Assembly: GCA_945920215.1 (NCBI GenBank)
Contig: CAMEJM010000003.1
Span: 65,115-129,114, forward strand
Direction of reading: 5' to 3'
DNA from: an uncultured bacterium
GTDB lineage: Bacteria > Bacillota > Clostridia > Oscillospirales > CAG-272
Length of the DNA stretch: 64,000 nt
Position numbers and translations under genes: made by a program. Shown piece by piece: positions 25,896 to 32,593 of the stretch. The notes below the pieces were generated by a model. The model did not search any database. It saw only the letters and a program-made list of their open reading frames with translations, and had not been told where the DNA came from. Within the stretch, counting starts at the first letter, position 1. Every line of letters begins with the position of its first letter.

Positions 25896-27101
25896 GTGAC
25901 AAAGATCGATATTATTTCCGGCTTTTTGGGCGCCGGTAAAACAACTCTGATTAAAAAGTTGATCCGCGAAGTTTATCAGGGCGAAAAGATTGTGCTGATT
26001 GAAAATGAATTCGGTGAAATCGGTATCGACGGCGGATTTTTGAAGGATTCCGGCATACAGATCAACGAGCTGAATTCCGGCTGTATCTGCTGCTCTCTGG
26101 TAGGGGATTTCGGCAATGCACTCGGCAAGGTGCTCAGCGATATGAAGCCGGACCGTATTATTATTGAGCCGTCCGGTGTCGGCAAACTTTCCGACGTTAT
26201 CAGAGCGGTGCAGGGTGCTGGGACCGAGGGGGCTGTCTTAAACGGCTTTACGACGGTTGCCGACGTCAATAAATGCAAGATGTATATGAAGAACTTCGGT
26301 GAGTTCTATAACGATCAGATTGCCAATGCCGGCTGTATCATCCTGAGCCATACAGCCAAAGCAAAGGAAGAAAAAATTGCCGAGTGCGTGGCACTGTTAC
26401 GCGAGCATAATGACAGCGCAGTGATTGTCACAACCGATTGGGACAAGCTCTCCGGTGCGGAAATCCTTGCCGCCATGGAGCGCAAAGATACCTTGAGCGC
26501 TGAAATTGAACGCCTGGCAAAAGAGGCAGAGGAGGCGCACCATCACCATGATGGCGACGACTGCTGCTGCGGGGAACATCACCATCATGATGAGGAGGAG
26601 CATGACCATCACCATCATCACGATGACGATGAAGAGGAGCATGACCATCACCATCATCACGATGATGATGAAGAGGAGCACGAGCATCACCATCATCACG
26701 ATGATGACGAAGAGGGGCACGAGCATCACCATCATCACGGCGATGACGATGATGACGATGATGACGATGAGTGCGATTGCGGTTGCGGGGAACATCACCA
26801 CCACCATCACCATCATCATGCAGATGAGGTCTTTACAAGCTGGGGGAAAGAGACGACCCGCAAGTTTACCGCCGACAGAATCCGTGAGATCTGCGCTGCA
26901 TTTGACGAGGACGCAGAGCGCTACGGCATGATTCTGCGTGCAAAGGGCATTGTGGAAGGGGAAGACGGCACTTGGATTCACTTTGATTATGTTCCCGGTG
27001 AGACCGATGTGCGTACAGGCGCCGCTGCCGTTATCGGGCGCGTGTGCGTGATTGGGTCACACCTTGCGGAAGATGAACTTGCCGAGCTGTTCGGACTGTG
27101 A
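25896..27101 (+). CDS. COG0523-family (CobW/ZigA/YeiR-like) GTPase metallochaperone with a ~97-residue His/Asp/Glu/Cys-rich insert
   Basis: GTG start after GGAGATGG. Walker A GFLGAGKTTL, metal motif GCICCSL (CxCC), IIIEPSGVG, then the insert AHHHHDGDDCCCGEHHHH...EHHHHHHHHH, then a CobW_C-like C-terminal domain. Confidence 0.88.
   Translation: MTKIDIISGFLGAGKTTLIKKLIREVYQGEKIVLIENEFGEIGIDGGFLKDSGIQINELNSGCICCSLVGDFGNALGKVLSDMKPDRIIIEPSGVGKLSDVIRAVQGAGTEGAVLNGFTTVADVNKCKMYMKNFGEFYNDQIANAGCIILSHTAKAKEEKIAECVALLREHNDSAVIVTTDWDKLSGAEILAAMERKDTLSAEIERLAKEAEEAHHHHDGDDCCCGEHHHHDEEEHDHHHHHDDDEEEHDHHHHHDDDEEEHEHHHHHDDDEEGHEHHHHHGDDDDDDDDDECDCGCGEHHHHHHHHHADEVFTSWGKETTRKFTADRIREICAAFDEDAERYGMILRAKGIVEGEDGTWIHFDYVPGETDVRTGAAAVIGRVCVIGSHLAEDELAELFGL
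26592..26747 (+). repeat. Four in-frame tandem copies of a 39-bp unit encoding EEEH(D/E)HHHHHDDD
   Basis: Units at 26592..26630, 26631..26669, 26670..26708 and 26709..26747 differ by a few substitutions. Further GAT/GAC and CAC/CAT runs follow. Confidence 0.9.
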
Positions 27102-27116: not shown

Positions 27117-28064
27117 ATGGAAATGCCCGTTTATCTGTTCACCGGCTTTTTGGAAGCCGGTAAAACAAAGTTTATTCAGGAGACTCTTGCCGACCCCAAA
27201 TTCAACGAGGGGGAACAAATGCTTGTTCTGCTTTGCGAAGAGGGGGAAGAAGAACTTGATCTGAGCGCCATGCCGGGAGGCGGCAAAAATATCTCCGTCA
27301 GCGTATTTGACGATGAACAGAGACTGACACCCGACAGACTTTCCGCATTGCAGAAACGCGCCCGTGCCGAGCGGGTGCTGATTGAGTACAACGGCATGTG
27401 GAATATTGATACTCTGTACAACTCCTTGCCGGACGGCTGGTTTGTGTGCGAGGAGATTTGTCTCTTTGACGCGTCAACCATACAGCAATATAACGCTAAT
27501 ATGCGGCAGCTTGTCGTTGATAAGCTGAAAAGCGCGCAAATGGTGATTTACAACCGCGTCCGCAAAGATATGGATATAGAGTTTATGCATAAGTTGGTGC
27601 GCGCTGTCAGCCGCCGATGCAATATCGGTTACGAGTACGAAGACGGCACCTTTATACCTGATGAAATTGAAGACCCGCTTCCGTTTGACCTGAACGCGCC
27701 GGTGGTGGAAATCAGCGACAAGGATTATGCCATCTGGTACAGTCATATCTCCGAGAATATGGAGCAATATGACGGTAAGACCGTTTCTTTTCTCGGCTTG
27801 GTCGAGCGCGATCCTTCCATGGGGAAGAATCTGCTGGCAATCGGGCGCCAGGTAATGGTGTGTTGCGCGGCGGATACCGCCTACCGCCCCTTGATTGCCA
27901 AATACGAGCAAGCAGGGAAACTGAACAACGGTCAGTGGGTAAGAGCAACAGGGAAAATCACGCTTGAGAATAACCGCTATTACCAAACGAAGGGTCCTGT
28001 TCTGAACGTCACCGCACTTGTTCCTGCGTCAGAACCTGCCGACCCGGTCGCTGCTTTTTATTGA
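27117..28064 (+). CDS. Degenerate COG0523-like P-loop domain fused to a DUF1980/TIGR03943-like C-terminal domain (CC-x-x-D motif)
   Basis: 315 aa. The N-terminus VYLFTGFLEAGKTKFI keeps GxxxxGKT. The CxCC motif is replaced by LLCEEGEEE, and ExSG by IEYNGMW. The C-terminal region is GKTVSFLGLVERD...GRQVMVCCAADTAYRP...WVRATGKI. It starts 16 nt after the preceding gene. Confidence 0.6.
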   Translation: MEMPVYLFTGFLEAGKTKFIQETLADPKFNEGEQMLVLLCEEGEEELDLSAMPGGGKNISVSVFDDEQRLTPDRLSALQKRARAERVLIEYNGMWNIDTLYNSLPDGWFVCEEICLFDASTIQQYNANMRQLVVDKLKSAQMVIYNRVRKDMDIEFMHKLVRAVSRRCNIGYEYEDGTFIPDEIEDPLPFDLNAPVVEISDKDYAIWYSHISENMEQYDGKTVSFLGLVERDPSMGKNLLAIGRQVMVCCAADTAYRPLIAKYEQAGKLNNGQWVRATGKITLENNRYYQTKGPVLNVTALVPASEPADPVAAFY

Positions 28065-28071
28065 TATATTT

Positions 28072-28103
28072 GAACGGCTGCCTTTCGTACAAGGCAGCCG
28101 TTC
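28072..28103 (+). terminator. Terminator hairpin after the COG0523 pair
   Basis: 13-bp perfect stem GAACGGCTGCCTT / AAGGCAGCCGTTC with a 6-nt loop. The downstream T-run is weak (catgcTTTatgTT). Confidence 0.6.
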
Positions 28104-28157
28104 CATGCTTTATGTTCAAAAAAATATGTTGCAGAAGATCGGGTGGGTAGAATATTT

Positions 28158-29315
28158 TTATTCGATCGAATACTTTTTTCCGTAATACGCTGCAAAACTT
28201 TTGATACATTGTTTTGTCGCTGATTCGTCAATTGGTAATTGGACAAATTCCGAATTAAGTTCTCTTAAGCGGGTGCAGGATAGAAACTCGATATTCTCTC
28301 CGTATGACTGTATGTAGGCTAATCTGTACAAATTCAGTTGCAGTTGTACTTTTTTGGGATACAAATGCATGGTCCTTTTGATATCGTTGATTCCCAGCAT
28401 ATGATCCATACTTATCAGCATATCGATTCTGCCGCAAAAGATTGGAATATCGTTATCGTCGCAAAATAATGCGATCTTTTCGGAGTCAAGCACCTTGAAA
28501 TGATTTTTTTCCTTAATTTTCAGGTAATTTGAAAATTCGATACTGTCGGAGTATACGCCGTTTTTTTCATAATTTTCGATTTCCTTATGTAGCACCGTAC
28601 CTTTTGCGGCGGCTCTTTTCAGTACAGCGGGATCAATGTATTTGTAATCATCTAATCCCATTTTTTGACTGGTATATTGTACGATAGCGGATACGCTGAA
28701 TACCTGCACGCCATCAACACGGTAAATATGATTTGTATCATCATACTCTATCCGGTGACCGTTAATCATTAAATGATTGTCAATCGAATAATAGTTATTC
28801 CCTCTTTCATGTGAAACAGCGCTGCTTTCATTCGGCAAAGGTACAGAGATATATTTGGGTATTGCAGCACTGTTTGCGGTGTTTGATATATTGACGCAGG
28901 TACTTGAAACATTGTGAGAAACACCGGCTGTATCTTTGGTTGCATTTGCATTGGTCACATTGCAAACCGTGCTTGCAGCATTTTGAACCGCGTTAGCGGC
29001 TTGTTTGCCCGTTTTTTCCTCCTTTCCCATGAGGTCTTTTATAAATATACATTTGTGAAATAAAGTATCTATATCGTATTCGTTTTTGATATATCCCCAA
29101 ATAGGATCGAAAGGGAAGAATATAAGAATATAAGGAAGTAGCAGATAAATGATATGAGCGAAGATTAGGGAAAAAAGTTGCATCAAAATGTCATCGAGAT
29201 TAAATGTGAAAACAGCATATAGGAGCTTTATGCAATCCCAAATGGCATCAATCACAATTGAAACAACAATAATAATCAATAACACAGGGTATAAAAGAAT
29301 ACTCCAATATCTCAT
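28158..29315 (-). CDS. Membrane-anchored PD-(D/E)XK (RecB/Cas4-like) nuclease-domain protein, hypothetical
   Basis: Track ORF 28158..29378. ATG 29315 (MRYWSILLYPVLL) follows GAGG. It has two hydrophobic helices, an N/S/T/A-rich linker, and a C-terminal domain with GTVLHKEIE, GRIDML, NDIKRT (D..D-x-K) and QLQLNLYRLAY (QxxxY). The gene sits in a 30-33 % G+C islet. Confidence 0.6.
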   Translation of the reverse strand: MRYWSILLYPVLLIIIVVSIVIDAIWDCIKLLYAVFTFNLDDILMQLFSLIFAHIIYLLLPYILIFFPFDPIWGYIKNEYDIDTLFHKCIFIKDLMGKEEKTGKQAANAVQNAASTVCNVTNANATKDTAGVSHNVSSTCVNISNTANSAAIPKYISVPLPNESSAVSHERGNNYYSIDNHLMINGHRIEYDDTNHIYRVDGVQVFSVSAIVQYTSQKMGLDDYKYIDPAVLKRAAAKGTVLHKEIENYEKNGVYSDSIEFSNYLKIKEKNHFKVLDSEKIALFCDDNDIPIFCGRIDMLISMDHMLGINDIKRTMHLYPKKVQLQLNLYRLAYIQSYGENIEFLSCTRLRELNSEFVQLPIDESATKQCIKSFAAYYGKKYSIE

Positions 29316-29403
29316 AGCAACCTCGGTTATATGAATAGGATTCGGATGATATTGACGGAAAAATGAAATGTAGAACAATCGCTCGGTTTTACAGTTTGAG
29401 AAT

Positions 29404-29430
29404 AAAAGAAAAAAGGCACAAGATGCCTTT
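29404..29430 (-). terminator. Terminator of the tRNA-Thr/tRNA-Gly unit
   Basis: Minus strand: AAAGGCA-tcttg-TGCCTTTTTTCTTTT. Confidence 0.7.
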
Positions 29431-29475
29431 AAATTCAGAAGTCGGTTTCTGAAAACCGCTTCGGGGGTTTGTAAA

Positions 29476-29549
29476 TGGAGCGGATGACGGGAATCGAACC
29501 CGCGTAGTCAGCTTGGGAAGCTGAAATTCTACCATTGAACTACATCCGC
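29476..29549 (-). tRNA. tRNA-Gly (anticodon CCC), CCA encoded
   Basis: Reverse complement GCGGATGTAGTTCAATGGTAGAAT...TTCCCAA...GGTTCGATTCCCGTCATCCGCTCCA. Discriminator U73, 74 nt. Confidence 0.9.
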
Positions 29550-29608: not shown

Positions 29609-29683
29609 TGGAGCTGGTGGTGAGATTTGAACTCACGACCTGCTGATTACGAATCAGCTGCACTGCCCCTGTGCTACACCAGC
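29609..29683 (-). tRNA. tRNA-Thr (anticodon CGT), CCA encoded
   Basis: Reverse complement GCTGGTGTAGCACAGGGGCAGTGC...TTCGTAA...GAGTTCAAATCTCACCACCAGCTCCA, 75 nt. Confidence 0.9.
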
Positions 29684-29750: not shown

Positions 29751-30647
29751 ATGAATTTGTGTAACCCTGCCGTCATCAGAGAAGTGATGGCGCGCGCCGG
29801 CATCCGTTTTCGTCATGAATACGGGCAGAATTTTCTGATCGATCCGACTGTGCCGCAGCGGATCGCCGAGATGTGCGCCGACGACCCGGAGAGTTTGATT
29901 CTGGAAATCGGTCCCGGCGTCGGCTCTTTGACGGCTGAGCTTGCACAGCGTTACCGAAAGGTGGCGGCGGTGGAGATAGACCGTGGGCTGATTCCCGTTC
30001 TTGCAGAGACGCTTGCCGAGTATGACAACGTGACCGTCACCAATTCCGACATTATGAACGTGGATCTGCCCTCTTTTCTGGCAGAGCAGAGCCGTGAGGG
30101 TGAGGCCGGGGGGGACACTAAAGTTTCCGTATGCGCCAATCTGCCGTATTATATTACTACGCCGATTCTGATGCGGCTTTTGGAATGCGGCGTGCCTTTT
30201 TCCACGATTACCGTCATGGTTCAGAAAGAGGTTGCTGCACGCCTGACGGCAAAGCCTGGGAAGTCCGATTACGGTGCGATTACGGCTGTCATCGGGTACT
30301 ATGGAACGGTACGAAAGTTGTTTGACATTCCGCGCAGCGCCTTTTTGCCGGCGCCCAAGGTGGACAGTGCGGTCATCCGCATTGATTTGTATGAAAAACC
30401 GCCTTTTCAGCTTTGCGACGTTCCGTTTTTCTTCGGTATTCTGCACGGTGCGTTTGAAATGCGCAGAAAAACGCTGACAAACGCCATCAGCGCCAAATAT
30501 CCCTCGCTACCCAAGCAGGAGATTGCCAAGGCGCTTACGGCAATGAATCTCGATGAGAATATACGCGGAGAAAGGTTGTCCGTTGCCGAGTTTGCAACGC
30601 TATCCAATTGCTTGTATCCCATATGGCACGGAACCAATGAAACATGA
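29751..30647 (+). CDS. rsmA: 16S rRNA (adenine1518/1519-N6)-dimethyltransferase
   Basis: Track ORF 29727..30647 starts at TTG. ATG 29751 gives MNLCNPAVIREVMARAGIRFRHEYGQNFL, followed by EIGPGVGSLT (SAM site) and ANLPYYITTPI. Confidence 0.92.
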   Translation: MNLCNPAVIREVMARAGIRFRHEYGQNFLIDPTVPQRIAEMCADDPESLILEIGPGVGSLTAELAQRYRKVAAVEIDRGLIPVLAETLAEYDNVTVTNSDIMNVDLPSFLAEQSREGEAGGDTKVSVCANLPYYITTPILMRLLECGVPFSTITVMVQKEVAARLTAKPGKSDYGAITAVIGYYGTVRKLFDIPRSAFLPAPKVDSAVIRIDLYEKPPFQLCDVPFFFGILHGAFEMRRKTLTNAISAKYPSLPKQEIAKALTAMNLDENIRGERLSVAEFATLSNCLYPIWHGTNET

Positions 30648-30680
30648 AAAAAGGATATCCCGAACGGATATCCTTTTTTG
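30647..30680. terminator. Bidirectional terminator between rsmA and the KH-domain gene
   Basis: AAAAAAGGATATCC-cgaac-GGATATCCTTTTTT. Confidence 0.85.
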
Positions 30681-30914
30681 TCATTCAATCTCAACAATGA
30701 TGTGTTTGCCACAGGTGTTTCCTGCTGCTTTGAGCAGGGAACGGATTGCTTTTGCAATTTTCCCGTGGTGCCCGATCACTTTACCGGTGTCATTTTCCGC
30801 AACGGTAAGAACAAGGGTAACCTCGTTTTCCTCCTCTGTTTGCGTGACGTTTACTTGATCGGGATCATCGACGATGGCGCGAGCAATATCGGTTAATATC
30901 TGCTTGTAGTCCAT
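30681..30914 (-). CDS. KH domain RNA-binding protein (YlqC/UPF0109 family)
   Basis: Track ORF 30681..30956. ATG 30914 (MDYKQILTDIARAIVD) follows AAAGGAAAGGG. GKVIGHHGKIAKAIRSLL is the KH GxxG region. It sits in the conserved position after rpsP. Confidence 0.85.
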   Translation of the reverse strand: MDYKQILTDIARAIVDDPDQVNVTQTEEENEVTLVLTVAENDTGKVIGHHGKIAKAIRSLLKAAGNTCGKHIIVEIE

Positions 30915-30948
30915 TTCTGACCCTTTCCTTTCGTAACTGAACAGGAAA

Positions 30949-31194
30949 TCAGTCAATGATGTTGGACTTCTTCAGGAGAGCCTTAACGGTATCGGTGGGT
31001 TGTGCGCCGTTCTTGATCCATTTGGTTGCTTTTTCAGCGTCGATCTGGATGGTTTCGGGCTCGGTCAGGGGATTGAAGTAACCGATTTCCTCAATGCATC
31101 TGCCGTCGCGGGGGGATCTCTCGTCAGCGACGACTACGCGGTAGAAAGGAGCCTTTTTCATACCCATTCTTCTCAATCTGATTTTAACTGCCAT
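30949..31194 (-). CDS. rpsP: 30S ribosomal protein S16
   Basis: 81 aa. [32 protein letters not shown]. Confidence 0.95.
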
Positions 31195-31243
31195 TGTTGT
31201 TGTTCCTCCAAATATAATATATAATTTTTTTTGGGAATCAAAA

Positions 31244-32593
31244 TTAGAAATTGAACTTGCCGCCGAGACCCAGCCCGTTCATCATACGCGTTCCGCGCTT
31301 CCCGGAGGCGGCGAACTGGCGCATCATTTTTTTCATTTGGTCAAACTGGCGGAGAAGTTTATTGACATCCTCGACGTTCTGCCCGCATCCTGCGGCAATT
31401 CTGCGGCGGCGGGAGCCGTTGATTATCTCCGGCTTCAAGCGTTCTTTGGGAGTCATGGAAAGCACGATTGCTTCTGTGCGCGCCATTTGCTTTTCGTCAA
31501 GGTTGACATCCTTGAAAGCACCGGTGTTGGCGCCCGGCAGCATGGACATGATCTGTTCAATGTTGCCCATCTTGCGGAGCTGTCTGAGCTGGACCAGAAA
31601 ATCTTCGAGGGAGAAGGTTGCTTCGCGGATTTTCTTTTCCATTTCCGCGGCTTTTTTCTCGTCATATGCCGTTTCTGCCTTTTCAATCAGCGAAAGCATG
31701 TCGCCCATGCCGAGGATACGGGAGGCGATACGGTCGGGATAAAAAGGCTCTATCGCGTCCGATTTCTCACCTGTACCGACAAATTTAATCGGCTTCCCGG
31801 TGACGTAGCGGACTGAAAGCGCGGCGCCGCCGCGGGTGTCGCCGTCCATCTTGGTCAGGACAACTCCGGTAATATCCAAAAGATTGTTAAAGGACTCCGC
31901 CACATTCACGGCATCCTGTCCGAGCATGGCATCTACCGTCAGGAGAATTTCTGTAGGGGAGGTGGCTGCTTTGATTTTCTTCAGCTCTTCCATCAACTCT
32001 TCATCAATATGCAGACGACCTGCGGTATCGATAAAGACCATATCATGGCCGTTCTTGCGGGCATATTCCACACCGGCGGTTGCGATTTTGACGGGGTTTA
32101 CCTTATTGCCCATGGTAAACACGGGCACATCGATATTTTTGCCGACAACCTGTAATTGATCAATTGCTGCGGGACGGTAAATATCGCAGGCAACCAGCAG
32201 GGGATTTTTCCCCTTTTTCTTATACATCAGGGCAAGCTTTCCGGCGTGTGTTGTTTTGCCGGCGCCCTGCAAGCCGACCATCATCACAACAGTCGGAGGC
32301 TTGGGGGCGATTTCCAGCTTTGCCTGTTCACTTCCCATGAGCTTAATCAACTCTTCGTTGACGATCTTGACGATCTGTTGCGCCGGGACAAGACTTTCCA
32401 GTACCTGTGCGCCTACGGCGCGTTCGGTCACTGCCTTGATGAAATCACGGGTGACCTTAAAGTTGACATCTGCTTCCAGCAGCGCAAGCTTGACCTCGCG
32501 CATACCTTCTTTTACGTCTGCTTCGGTGAGCTTACCTTTATTGCGAAATCTGCGAAACGCGTTCGCAAGCTTTTCGGTCAGATTGCCGAACAT
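31244..32593 (-). CDS. ffh: Signal recognition particle protein Ffh
   Basis: 449 aa. N/G domain ([21 protein letters not shown]) and a Met-rich M domain. Confidence 0.95.

Follow-up and report, generated by a model that had tools for sequence, protein, structure and literature searches.

A predicted membrane-tethered RecB-type exonuclease encoded beside a tRNA-Gly gene of an uncultured Oscillospirales bacterium, and its possible role against incoming DNA

Why does the chromosome of an uncultured member of the Oscillospirales (CAG-272) carry, between a terminator and a pair of tRNA genes, a single AT-rich gene for a nuclease that appears to be fixed to the cell membrane? The gene lies in a 64,000-nucleotide stretch of contig CAMEJM010000003.1 (the whole of which is here called the window), where an earlier reading of the letters (the original prediction) had suggested that it is foreign and had proposed for its product a role in abortive infection or exclusion, or else the status of a prophage remnant. 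The reading that we favour, tentatively and as a little short of an even bet, is that the gene came by horizontal transfer and that its product is an exonuclease, tethered to the membrane and dependent on DNA ends, which attacks incoming DNA; its topology, its substrate and its part in defence are what we infer.

An exonuclease domain on a membrane tether

The gene and the three parts of its product are as follows.

28158..29315, minus strand: nuclease gene, the only gene of the islet; open reading frame (ORF) of 385 amino acids (aa) with an ATG start, stop codon included
28161..28781, minus strand: residues 179-385, RecB/Cas4/MGME1-type PD-(D/E)XK exonuclease domain (AlphaFold2 [AF2], Foldseek, motifs)
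28782..29090, minus strand: residues 76-178, juxtamembrane helix and then a disordered, N/S/T/A-rich low-complexity tether (AF2, composition)
29106..29315, minus strand: residues 1-70, two hydrophobic helices, predicted transmembrane (TM) hairpin (hydropathy, AF2)

AF2 folds residues 179-383 into an alpha/beta domain with a predicted local distance difference test score (pLDDT) above 90. The original prediction had quoted four motifs in the order typical of RecB/Cas4-type nucleases, and all four are present: motif I (GTVLH243), motif II (GRID298), motif III (D311-I-K313) and then Q326LNLY330 (Q326xxxY330). In alignments of 28 to 30 homologues, H243, D298, D311, K313, Q326 and Y330 are invariant and there is no conserved cysteine; since the motif residues are unchanging and cysteines are not retained, we are confident that the modelled domain is a PD-(D/E)XK exonuclease of the RecB type, with its catalytic site intact and with no Fe-S cluster. 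A Foldseek search with the AF2 model bore out the nuclease fold, which is restriction-endonuclease-like (alpha-beta-beta-beta-alpha-beta), with human MGME1 as the best match in the PDB (E = 7e-8; TM-score 0.6, target-normalised), followed by the AdnAB and AddAB nuclease domains, Cas4 SSO0001, Dna2, RecE and EXO5. Against viral models, the best match was a 197-aa Siphoviridae MGME1-like exonuclease (TM-score 0.94, root-mean-square deviation 1.0 Å, 36% identity). MGME1, Cas4, AddB/AdnAB, Dna2, EXO5 and RecE share the fold and the catalytic constellation and are all end-dependent exonucleases; the clade to which the window protein belongs differs from these RecB-family domains in its membrane anchor, which is unique to it, and in having no conserved four-Cys Fe-S cluster, and the window protein, unlike the RecB-family systems, has neither a fused helicase nor cas genes nearby.

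Among family models, PHROG 298 ("exonuclease") matches residues 182-382 (E = 1.2e-16), and Pfam PDDEXK_1 (PF12705) gives a sub-threshold score (E = 0.24, 11.7 bits against a cut-off of 22). The same Pfam model matches 9 of 31 close relatives at E <= 0.01, and several relatives carry precomputed PF12705 hits. An exact-sequence look-up of the window protein returned no record, a PDB sequence search gave chance hits only, no NCBIfam family matched the protein, and the nuclease had no match in a plasmid collection. Cas4 was considered as an identity and ruled out, for the cysteines of the four-Cys Fe-S cluster are not conserved and there are no cas genes among the neighbouring ORFs.

At the N terminus, hydropathy and AF2 agree with the two hydrophobic helices and the N/S/T/A-rich linker that had been proposed. 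The hydrophobic segments span residues ~1-36 and ~40-73 (Kyte-Doolittle maxima of 2.8 and 2.3), with AF2 helices at residues 3-37 and 40-66 (pLDDT 70-86); residues 116-178 are disordered in the model (pLDDT < 50), and the 75 residues of the linker include 13 N, 11 S, 9 A, 7 V and 6 T. The protein has no signal peptide. An exhaustive search of 1.8 billion representatives found no homologue of the N-terminal 175 residues.

Phage ancestors, anchored relatives and a helicase partner

The soluble homologues of the nuclease domain, about 200 aa long, are encoded in the recombination modules of phages. In L. delbrueckii phage c5 the ORF28 exonuclease is followed by a single-stranded DNA-binding protein (SSB), NinB, HNH and RusA; the order is exo-exo-RecT in Faecalibacterium phage FP_Brigit and ERF ... 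exo-SSB in a metagenomic temperate phage, and in a PinkBerry-associated phage the match falls under features annotated as an exonuclease and an Erf-like annealing protein. Relatives are encoded at 117 loci in IMG/VR. At the best 80, the ORF length is about 150-280 aa (mostly 190-205) and in no case was there a TM segment outside the nuclease domain, hydropathy peaks inside the nuclease core (residues 94-113 of the phage proteins) being taken as buried beta-strands. The PHROG 298 phage exonucleases (phage c5 ORF28; Siphoviridae A0A8S5N8T7) have a homologous domain with about 40% identity and share motifs I-III and QxxxY with the window protein, but they are soluble proteins of about 200 aa encoded beside Erf/RecT, SSB and RusA, whereas the window protein has 385 aa, with its TM hairpin and a tether of about 100 aa, and its gene stands alone in a chromosome without recombination partners. 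As far as sequences can tell, the best explanation is that the nuclease domain descends from a soluble exonuclease of phage recombination modules, where its partners would have been Erf/RecT and SSB.

A membrane anchor sets part of the family apart. Of 176 cluster representatives, 30 have a hydrophobic segment beyond the nuclease domain (N-terminal in 24, C-terminal in 6), and such anchors occur in 17 of the 29 relatives that score best against the window protein, as against 1 of the 76 that score lowest. When the proteins were clustered by nuclease domain, the anchored ones fell into groups next to one another and away from the large group of soluble, phage-type proteins. Anchoring is a trait of a separate cellular clade and the norm among the closest relatives. 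The usual layout in this clade is that of the window protein, namely, one or more TM helices, a low-complexity N/S/T/K linker of 60-240 residues and the nuclease (P0031, P0033, P0036, P0038, P0039, P0043, P0177, P0180 and others). The architecture that the original prediction had called unusual is thus real as a layout but is no one-off, since a whole clade shares anchor, tether and nuclease. Variants include the tail-anchored P0010, P0019 and P0020, of which P0019 and P0020 are, like the window gene, solo anchored copies; P0032, which joins the nuclease through a linker to a DUF805-type multi-pass domain; and P0037, which unites an anchor, a coiled coil, a PIF1-like ATP-dependent helicase and the nuclease in one fusion. 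These relatives argue that the nuclease domain of the window protein would lie in the cytoplasm, because the helicase fused in P0037 requires ATP, because K/R-rich stretches directly follow the TM helix in several single-pass relatives, and because the tail-anchored proteins lack a signal peptide.

Several other members of the family have domain arrangements of their own. P0002 (L095:418-2082) is a protein of 554 aa with two tandem nuclease domains, an N/S-rich linker and a C-terminal TM helix. In high-GC variants (L189:763-2043 and L190:2999-4285; also the protein P0047) the nuclease precedes a C-terminal multi-pass membrane domain, motif III reads GIR in place of DIK, and the motif I histidine is replaced by Q; because motif III and this histidine have been lost, these variants are probably catalytically dead. 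P0003 (L092:970-5294), which has no TM helix, is fused to BspA-type leucine-rich repeats, and its gene lies two genes downstream of that for a UvrD/GajB-like helicase. P0023 joins the nuclease to an N4/N6 DNA methyltransferase domain (PF01555).

The neighbourhoods of the anchored relatives have a recurrent member, a soluble superfamily 1 (SF1) helicase of about 904-923 aa with AAA_11, AAA_12 and a C-terminal DUF2726, which adjoins the nuclease gene, or lies one gene off, in six independent contexts.

L084:7261-10768: helicase and nuclease genes
L184:7033-10627: helicase and nuclease genes; grouped as L184/186/187, on contigs of 246-258 kb
L085:190-3247: helicase and nuclease genes
L258:7184-10870: helicase and nuclease genes; grouped as L258/259
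L261:920-5158: helicase and nuclease genes; grouped as L261/262, in which a gene for a CBS-domain protein lies between the two
L263:1889-5682: helicase and nuclease genes

With one close pair excepted, the helicases are only 29-39% identical to one another, which points to an old and conserved pairing. The anchored nuclease and the SF1 helicase-DUF2726 look like a conserved two-gene module that is unnamed in PADLOC 2023. When PADLOC was applied to the helicases, the only matches were to the helicase core (the MkoA/MkoC models), and DUF2726 is classed as PD-(D/E)XK in the only literature that we found on it. Pairing with a large SF1 helicase likens the anchored relatives to Nhi, Hachiman, Gabija and Mokosh, but among these helicase-nuclease defence systems the only match is that of the helicase core to the Mokosh models, the nuclease partner having no PADLOC model and the window copy no helicase: tblastn with six helicases of the SF1 helicase-DUF2726 type found no match in the window. 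To the original prediction of a nuclease standing alone it has to be added that the clade is usually paired with such a helicase. Other neighbours of the anchored relatives include AbiEii/AbiEi-like ORFs (recognised by reading of the sequence and not by hidden Markov models), RelB-PIN and MazE-PIN pairs, BrnA, Fic, AIPR, MazG, DUF4357-PDDEXK_4, YhcG, a Schlafen-type helicase and PIF1.

A probably foreign gene at a variable tRNA site

The islet lies between the edges that the original prediction had given it, and its remaining features are these.

28072..28103, plus strand: intrinsic terminator hairpin of the convergent cobW/DUF1980_C gene, forming the left edge; perfect 13-bp stem with 8 GC pairs
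29316..29374, minus strand: 5' region of the nuclease gene, with promoter-like hexamers and a GAGG ribosome-binding site
29412..29430, minus strand: terminator-like hairpin and T-run 3' of tRNA-Gly (hairpin scan, sequence reading)
29476..29549, minus strand: tRNA-Gly(CCC), its 3' end forming the right edge (ARAGORN; Rfam, 69.7 bits)
29609..29683, minus strand: tRNA-Thr(CGT), upstream of tRNA-Gly in the same tRNA operon (ARAGORN; Rfam)

The gene has a GC content of 36.8%, against a mean of 51.7% (standard deviation 3.7) over segments of its own length (1158 nt) across the 64 kb (z ~ -4), and it is the lowest in GC of 1257 such segments; the islet stands at 36.7%. At third codon positions the GC content of the gene is 38.6%, whereas cobW, rsmA and ffh have 57-62%. 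The sharp compositional break reported earlier was reproduced in all four sampled 60-nt lines (33.3% at 28501-28560 and 30.0% at 29161-29220 within the islet; 46.7% at 27901-27960 and 61.7% at 29821-29880 in the flanks).

For an empty-site comparison, the flanking cobW-like protein led to 80 loci, of which L003 alone was syntenic, the rest sharing no more than the cobW pair; L003 is also the closest of these loci (66% identity), and its gene order is cobW1-cobW2-(2.1 kb)-tRNA-Gly-tRNA-Thr-rsmA-KH-rpsP-ffh. The 2.1-kb insert of L003 holds no nuclease gene but a HicB-like antitoxin and a 149-aa ORF. Nucleotide homology between the window and L003 ends inside cobW2 and restarts exactly at 29476, the 3' end of tRNA-Gly. 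Because L003 carries other genes at this position, with homology resuming at 29476, the 3' side of tRNA-Gly is supported, by this single relative, as a variable cargo site. Together with the deviant GC content, the variable site supports the foreign origin that had been proposed, by horizontal acquisition. There was no integrase ORF at 24-34 kb of the window, and a repeat search found short chance repeats only and no meaningful flanking direct repeats, of the tRNA 3' end or other, both in agreement with the original prediction. In L003 itself (L003:1796-3043 for the two genes), the antitoxin matches PF15919 with E = 4.5e-12, and the 149-aa ORF is without a family match.

The gene has putative expression signals of its own. 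A promoter-like TCTACA-17-TATCAT lies at 29374..29346 on the minus strand (9 of 12 consensus matches), and GAGG stands 5 nt upstream of the ATG at 29315, both recognised by match to consensus; a longer reading from a TTG at 29378 was dropped, since this start, unlike the ATG, has no ribosome-binding-site support. The hairpin at 29412..29430 is, by its sequence, a predicted divide between the tRNA transcript and the nuclease gene.

Pig-gut metagenome runs contain the gene at about 98% identity, and in one strain a contig joins it to cobW. Between a pig-gut strain and the window, the gene shows 13 synonymous and 6 nonsynonymous differences and no indels, where chance alone would make about 20% of mutations synonymous; only one of the nonsynonymous differences falls in the nuclease domain, most lying in the tether region (residues 76-178). 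This ratio, the absence of indels and the nearly unchanged nuclease domain indicate purifying selection on the gene among the pig-gut strains. The alternative of a prophage remnant, which the original prediction had left standing, finds no support and is set aside: around the gene, the window has cobW-like genes, tRNAs and rsmA but nothing from a phage, no anchored form was found in the best 80 viral loci, and selection has acted on the gene.

In runs X1 and X3, the part of the gene at 28229-29270 differs from the window by about 2%, and the flanking housekeeping genes at 27386-28218 and 29895-31354 differ by 5-10% in contigs of similar depth; the lower divergence of the gene may mean that strains have recently exchanged the islet. 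In run X2, where a depth of 2-3x is too shallow to call absence, the flanks are near-identical and the gene is covered by no contig. The upstream CobW-family GTPase (25896-27101 of the window) contains a His/Asp/Glu-rich low-complexity insert of about 110 aa, which suggests a metallochaperone, and in metagenome contigs this repeat comes in many lengths and contains rearranged joints.

What a tethered exonuclease may do

In the reading that we favour, the nuclease would face the cytoplasm, held in a shell beneath the membrane, and would require a free DNA end, as its relatives do. Because the anchor would confine the nuclease and a free end would be needed, the circular chromosome would be out of reach and would not be engaged, and linear DNA would be attacked on entry into the cell. 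The most likely target would be the phage genome during injection, conjugative or transforming DNA being further possibilities. In most relatives, the adjacent soluble SF1 helicase-DUF2726 would probably feed or process the substrate; the window copy would act alone or with a host helicase. Spatial discrimination of self from non-self along these lines would have an experimental precedent in the unrelated SNIPE (PD-lambda-1), an inner-membrane protein with a cytoplasmic nuclease that cuts lambda DNA during injection (Saxton et al., Nature 2026; PMC13190303). In SNIPE as in the window protein, one polypeptide bears a membrane anchor at the N terminus, an N-terminal region that varies and a nuclease at the C terminus. 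The DUF4041 and the GIY-YIG nuclease of SNIPE are both missing from the window protein (Pfam, PADLOC), which carries a PD-(D/E)XK nuclease instead and a disordered middle region; membership of SNIPE is ruled out on these grounds. The window protein is not known to interact with a tape-measure protein or receptor, and the resemblance would be a functional analogy with no shared domain.

A part in defence or exclusion, which the original prediction had proposed, stays the best reading of this locus, and the family-level context, in which homologue neighbourhoods hold toxin-antitoxin and defence genes, strengthens the suggestion. Several points weigh against it. In the window, the neighbourhood consists of housekeeping genes, with no defence island, and PADLOC 2023 gave no match to the nuclease. 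The window copy is without the helicase seen in most characterised contexts, and because this partner is missing it may not be autonomous. The charge counts round the two-helix hairpin leave the orientation of the window protein ambiguous. The empty-site comparison had one syntenic relative, and the context survey covered about ten distinct loci and is not a statistical test of enrichment.

The alternative that survives best, though we judge it unlikely, is abortive infection, in which the tethered nuclease would be inactive until membrane damage or proteolysis of the linker freed it to degrade host and phage DNA and kill the cell. SNIPE becomes toxic once its TM domain is removed (PMC13190303), the long disordered linker could serve as a cleavage site, and toxin-antitoxin and Abi genes neighbour the relatives; an end-dependent exonuclease of the MGME1/RecE type would be ill-suited to an intact circular chromosome, however, and no protease or sensor gene is linked to the gene in the window. 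Slightly less probable again is that the gene is an orphan that serves no purpose in its present host, being the half that survives of a helicase-nuclease module or of a mobile element. The want of the helicase in the window when most anchored relatives have it nearby fits such a remnant, as does that of an integrase and repeats, but the ORF, the catalytic residues, the ribosome-binding site and the promoter-like site are all intact, the strain differences (13:6, without indels) speak for selection, and P0019 and P0020 are also solo.

Gram-positive bacteria have surface nucleases such as EndA and NucA, and an outward-facing enzyme that degrades extracellular DNA for nutrients, biofilm remodelling or DNA uptake would be comparable to these. 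We consider this improbable: the hairpin charges leave orientation unfixed, the N/S/T-rich linker resembles the stalks of surface proteins and one relative is fused to BspA-type repeats, but a signal peptide is lacking, the relatives include tail-anchored proteins, proteins with a positive-inside C-flank and proteins fused or adjacent to ATP-dependent, and hence cytoplasmic, helicases, and the proposed ancestor is an intracellular recombination exonuclease. Least probable of all is a housekeeping role in membrane DNA processing, such as end resection in repair, segregation or sporulation, for which the repair nucleases of the fold family (AddAB, AdnAB, Dna2, MGME1) can be cited and against which stand the foreign composition and variable site, the absence of the gene from the closest syntenic genome (L003), the lack of NCBIfam matches and a patchy distribution with toxin-antitoxin and defence neighbours.

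Not until 2026 was a membrane-localised nuclease shown to destroy phage DNA, in the case of SNIPE (PMC13190303), and a review of the same year names only Zorya, Kiwa and SNIPE as membrane-localised defences that target DNA (PMC12904381). By analogy, the exonuclease described here may be a PD-(D/E)XK counterpart of the membrane-bound-nuclease strategy, from a clade that is unnamed in Pfam, NCBIfam and PADLOC 2023. More speculatively, and with somewhat less assurance than we attach to the reading of the window gene, the anchored MGME1/RecB-like clade could be an undescribed family of anti-phage or anti-mobile-DNA defences, acting solo or with the helicase-DUF2726 and destroying DNA ends on the cytoplasmic side of the membrane, and a second, independently evolved form of SNIPE-like spatial immunity that arose by capture of a phage recombination exonuclease. 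The helicase-DUF2726 and the nuclease would make a testable two-gene candidate system, one that PADLOC 2023, Pfam and NCBIfam leave without a name. Should the function be otherwise, the locus is still a well-delimited case of single-gene horizontal acquisition at a tRNA hot spot. If our reading is true, spatial discrimination of self from non-self would be convergent and therefore a general immune strategy, spatial immunity would extend to gut Firmicutes, and the gene would offer a clean case in which a host has domesticated the recombination exonuclease of a phage and turned it on DNA that enters the cell.

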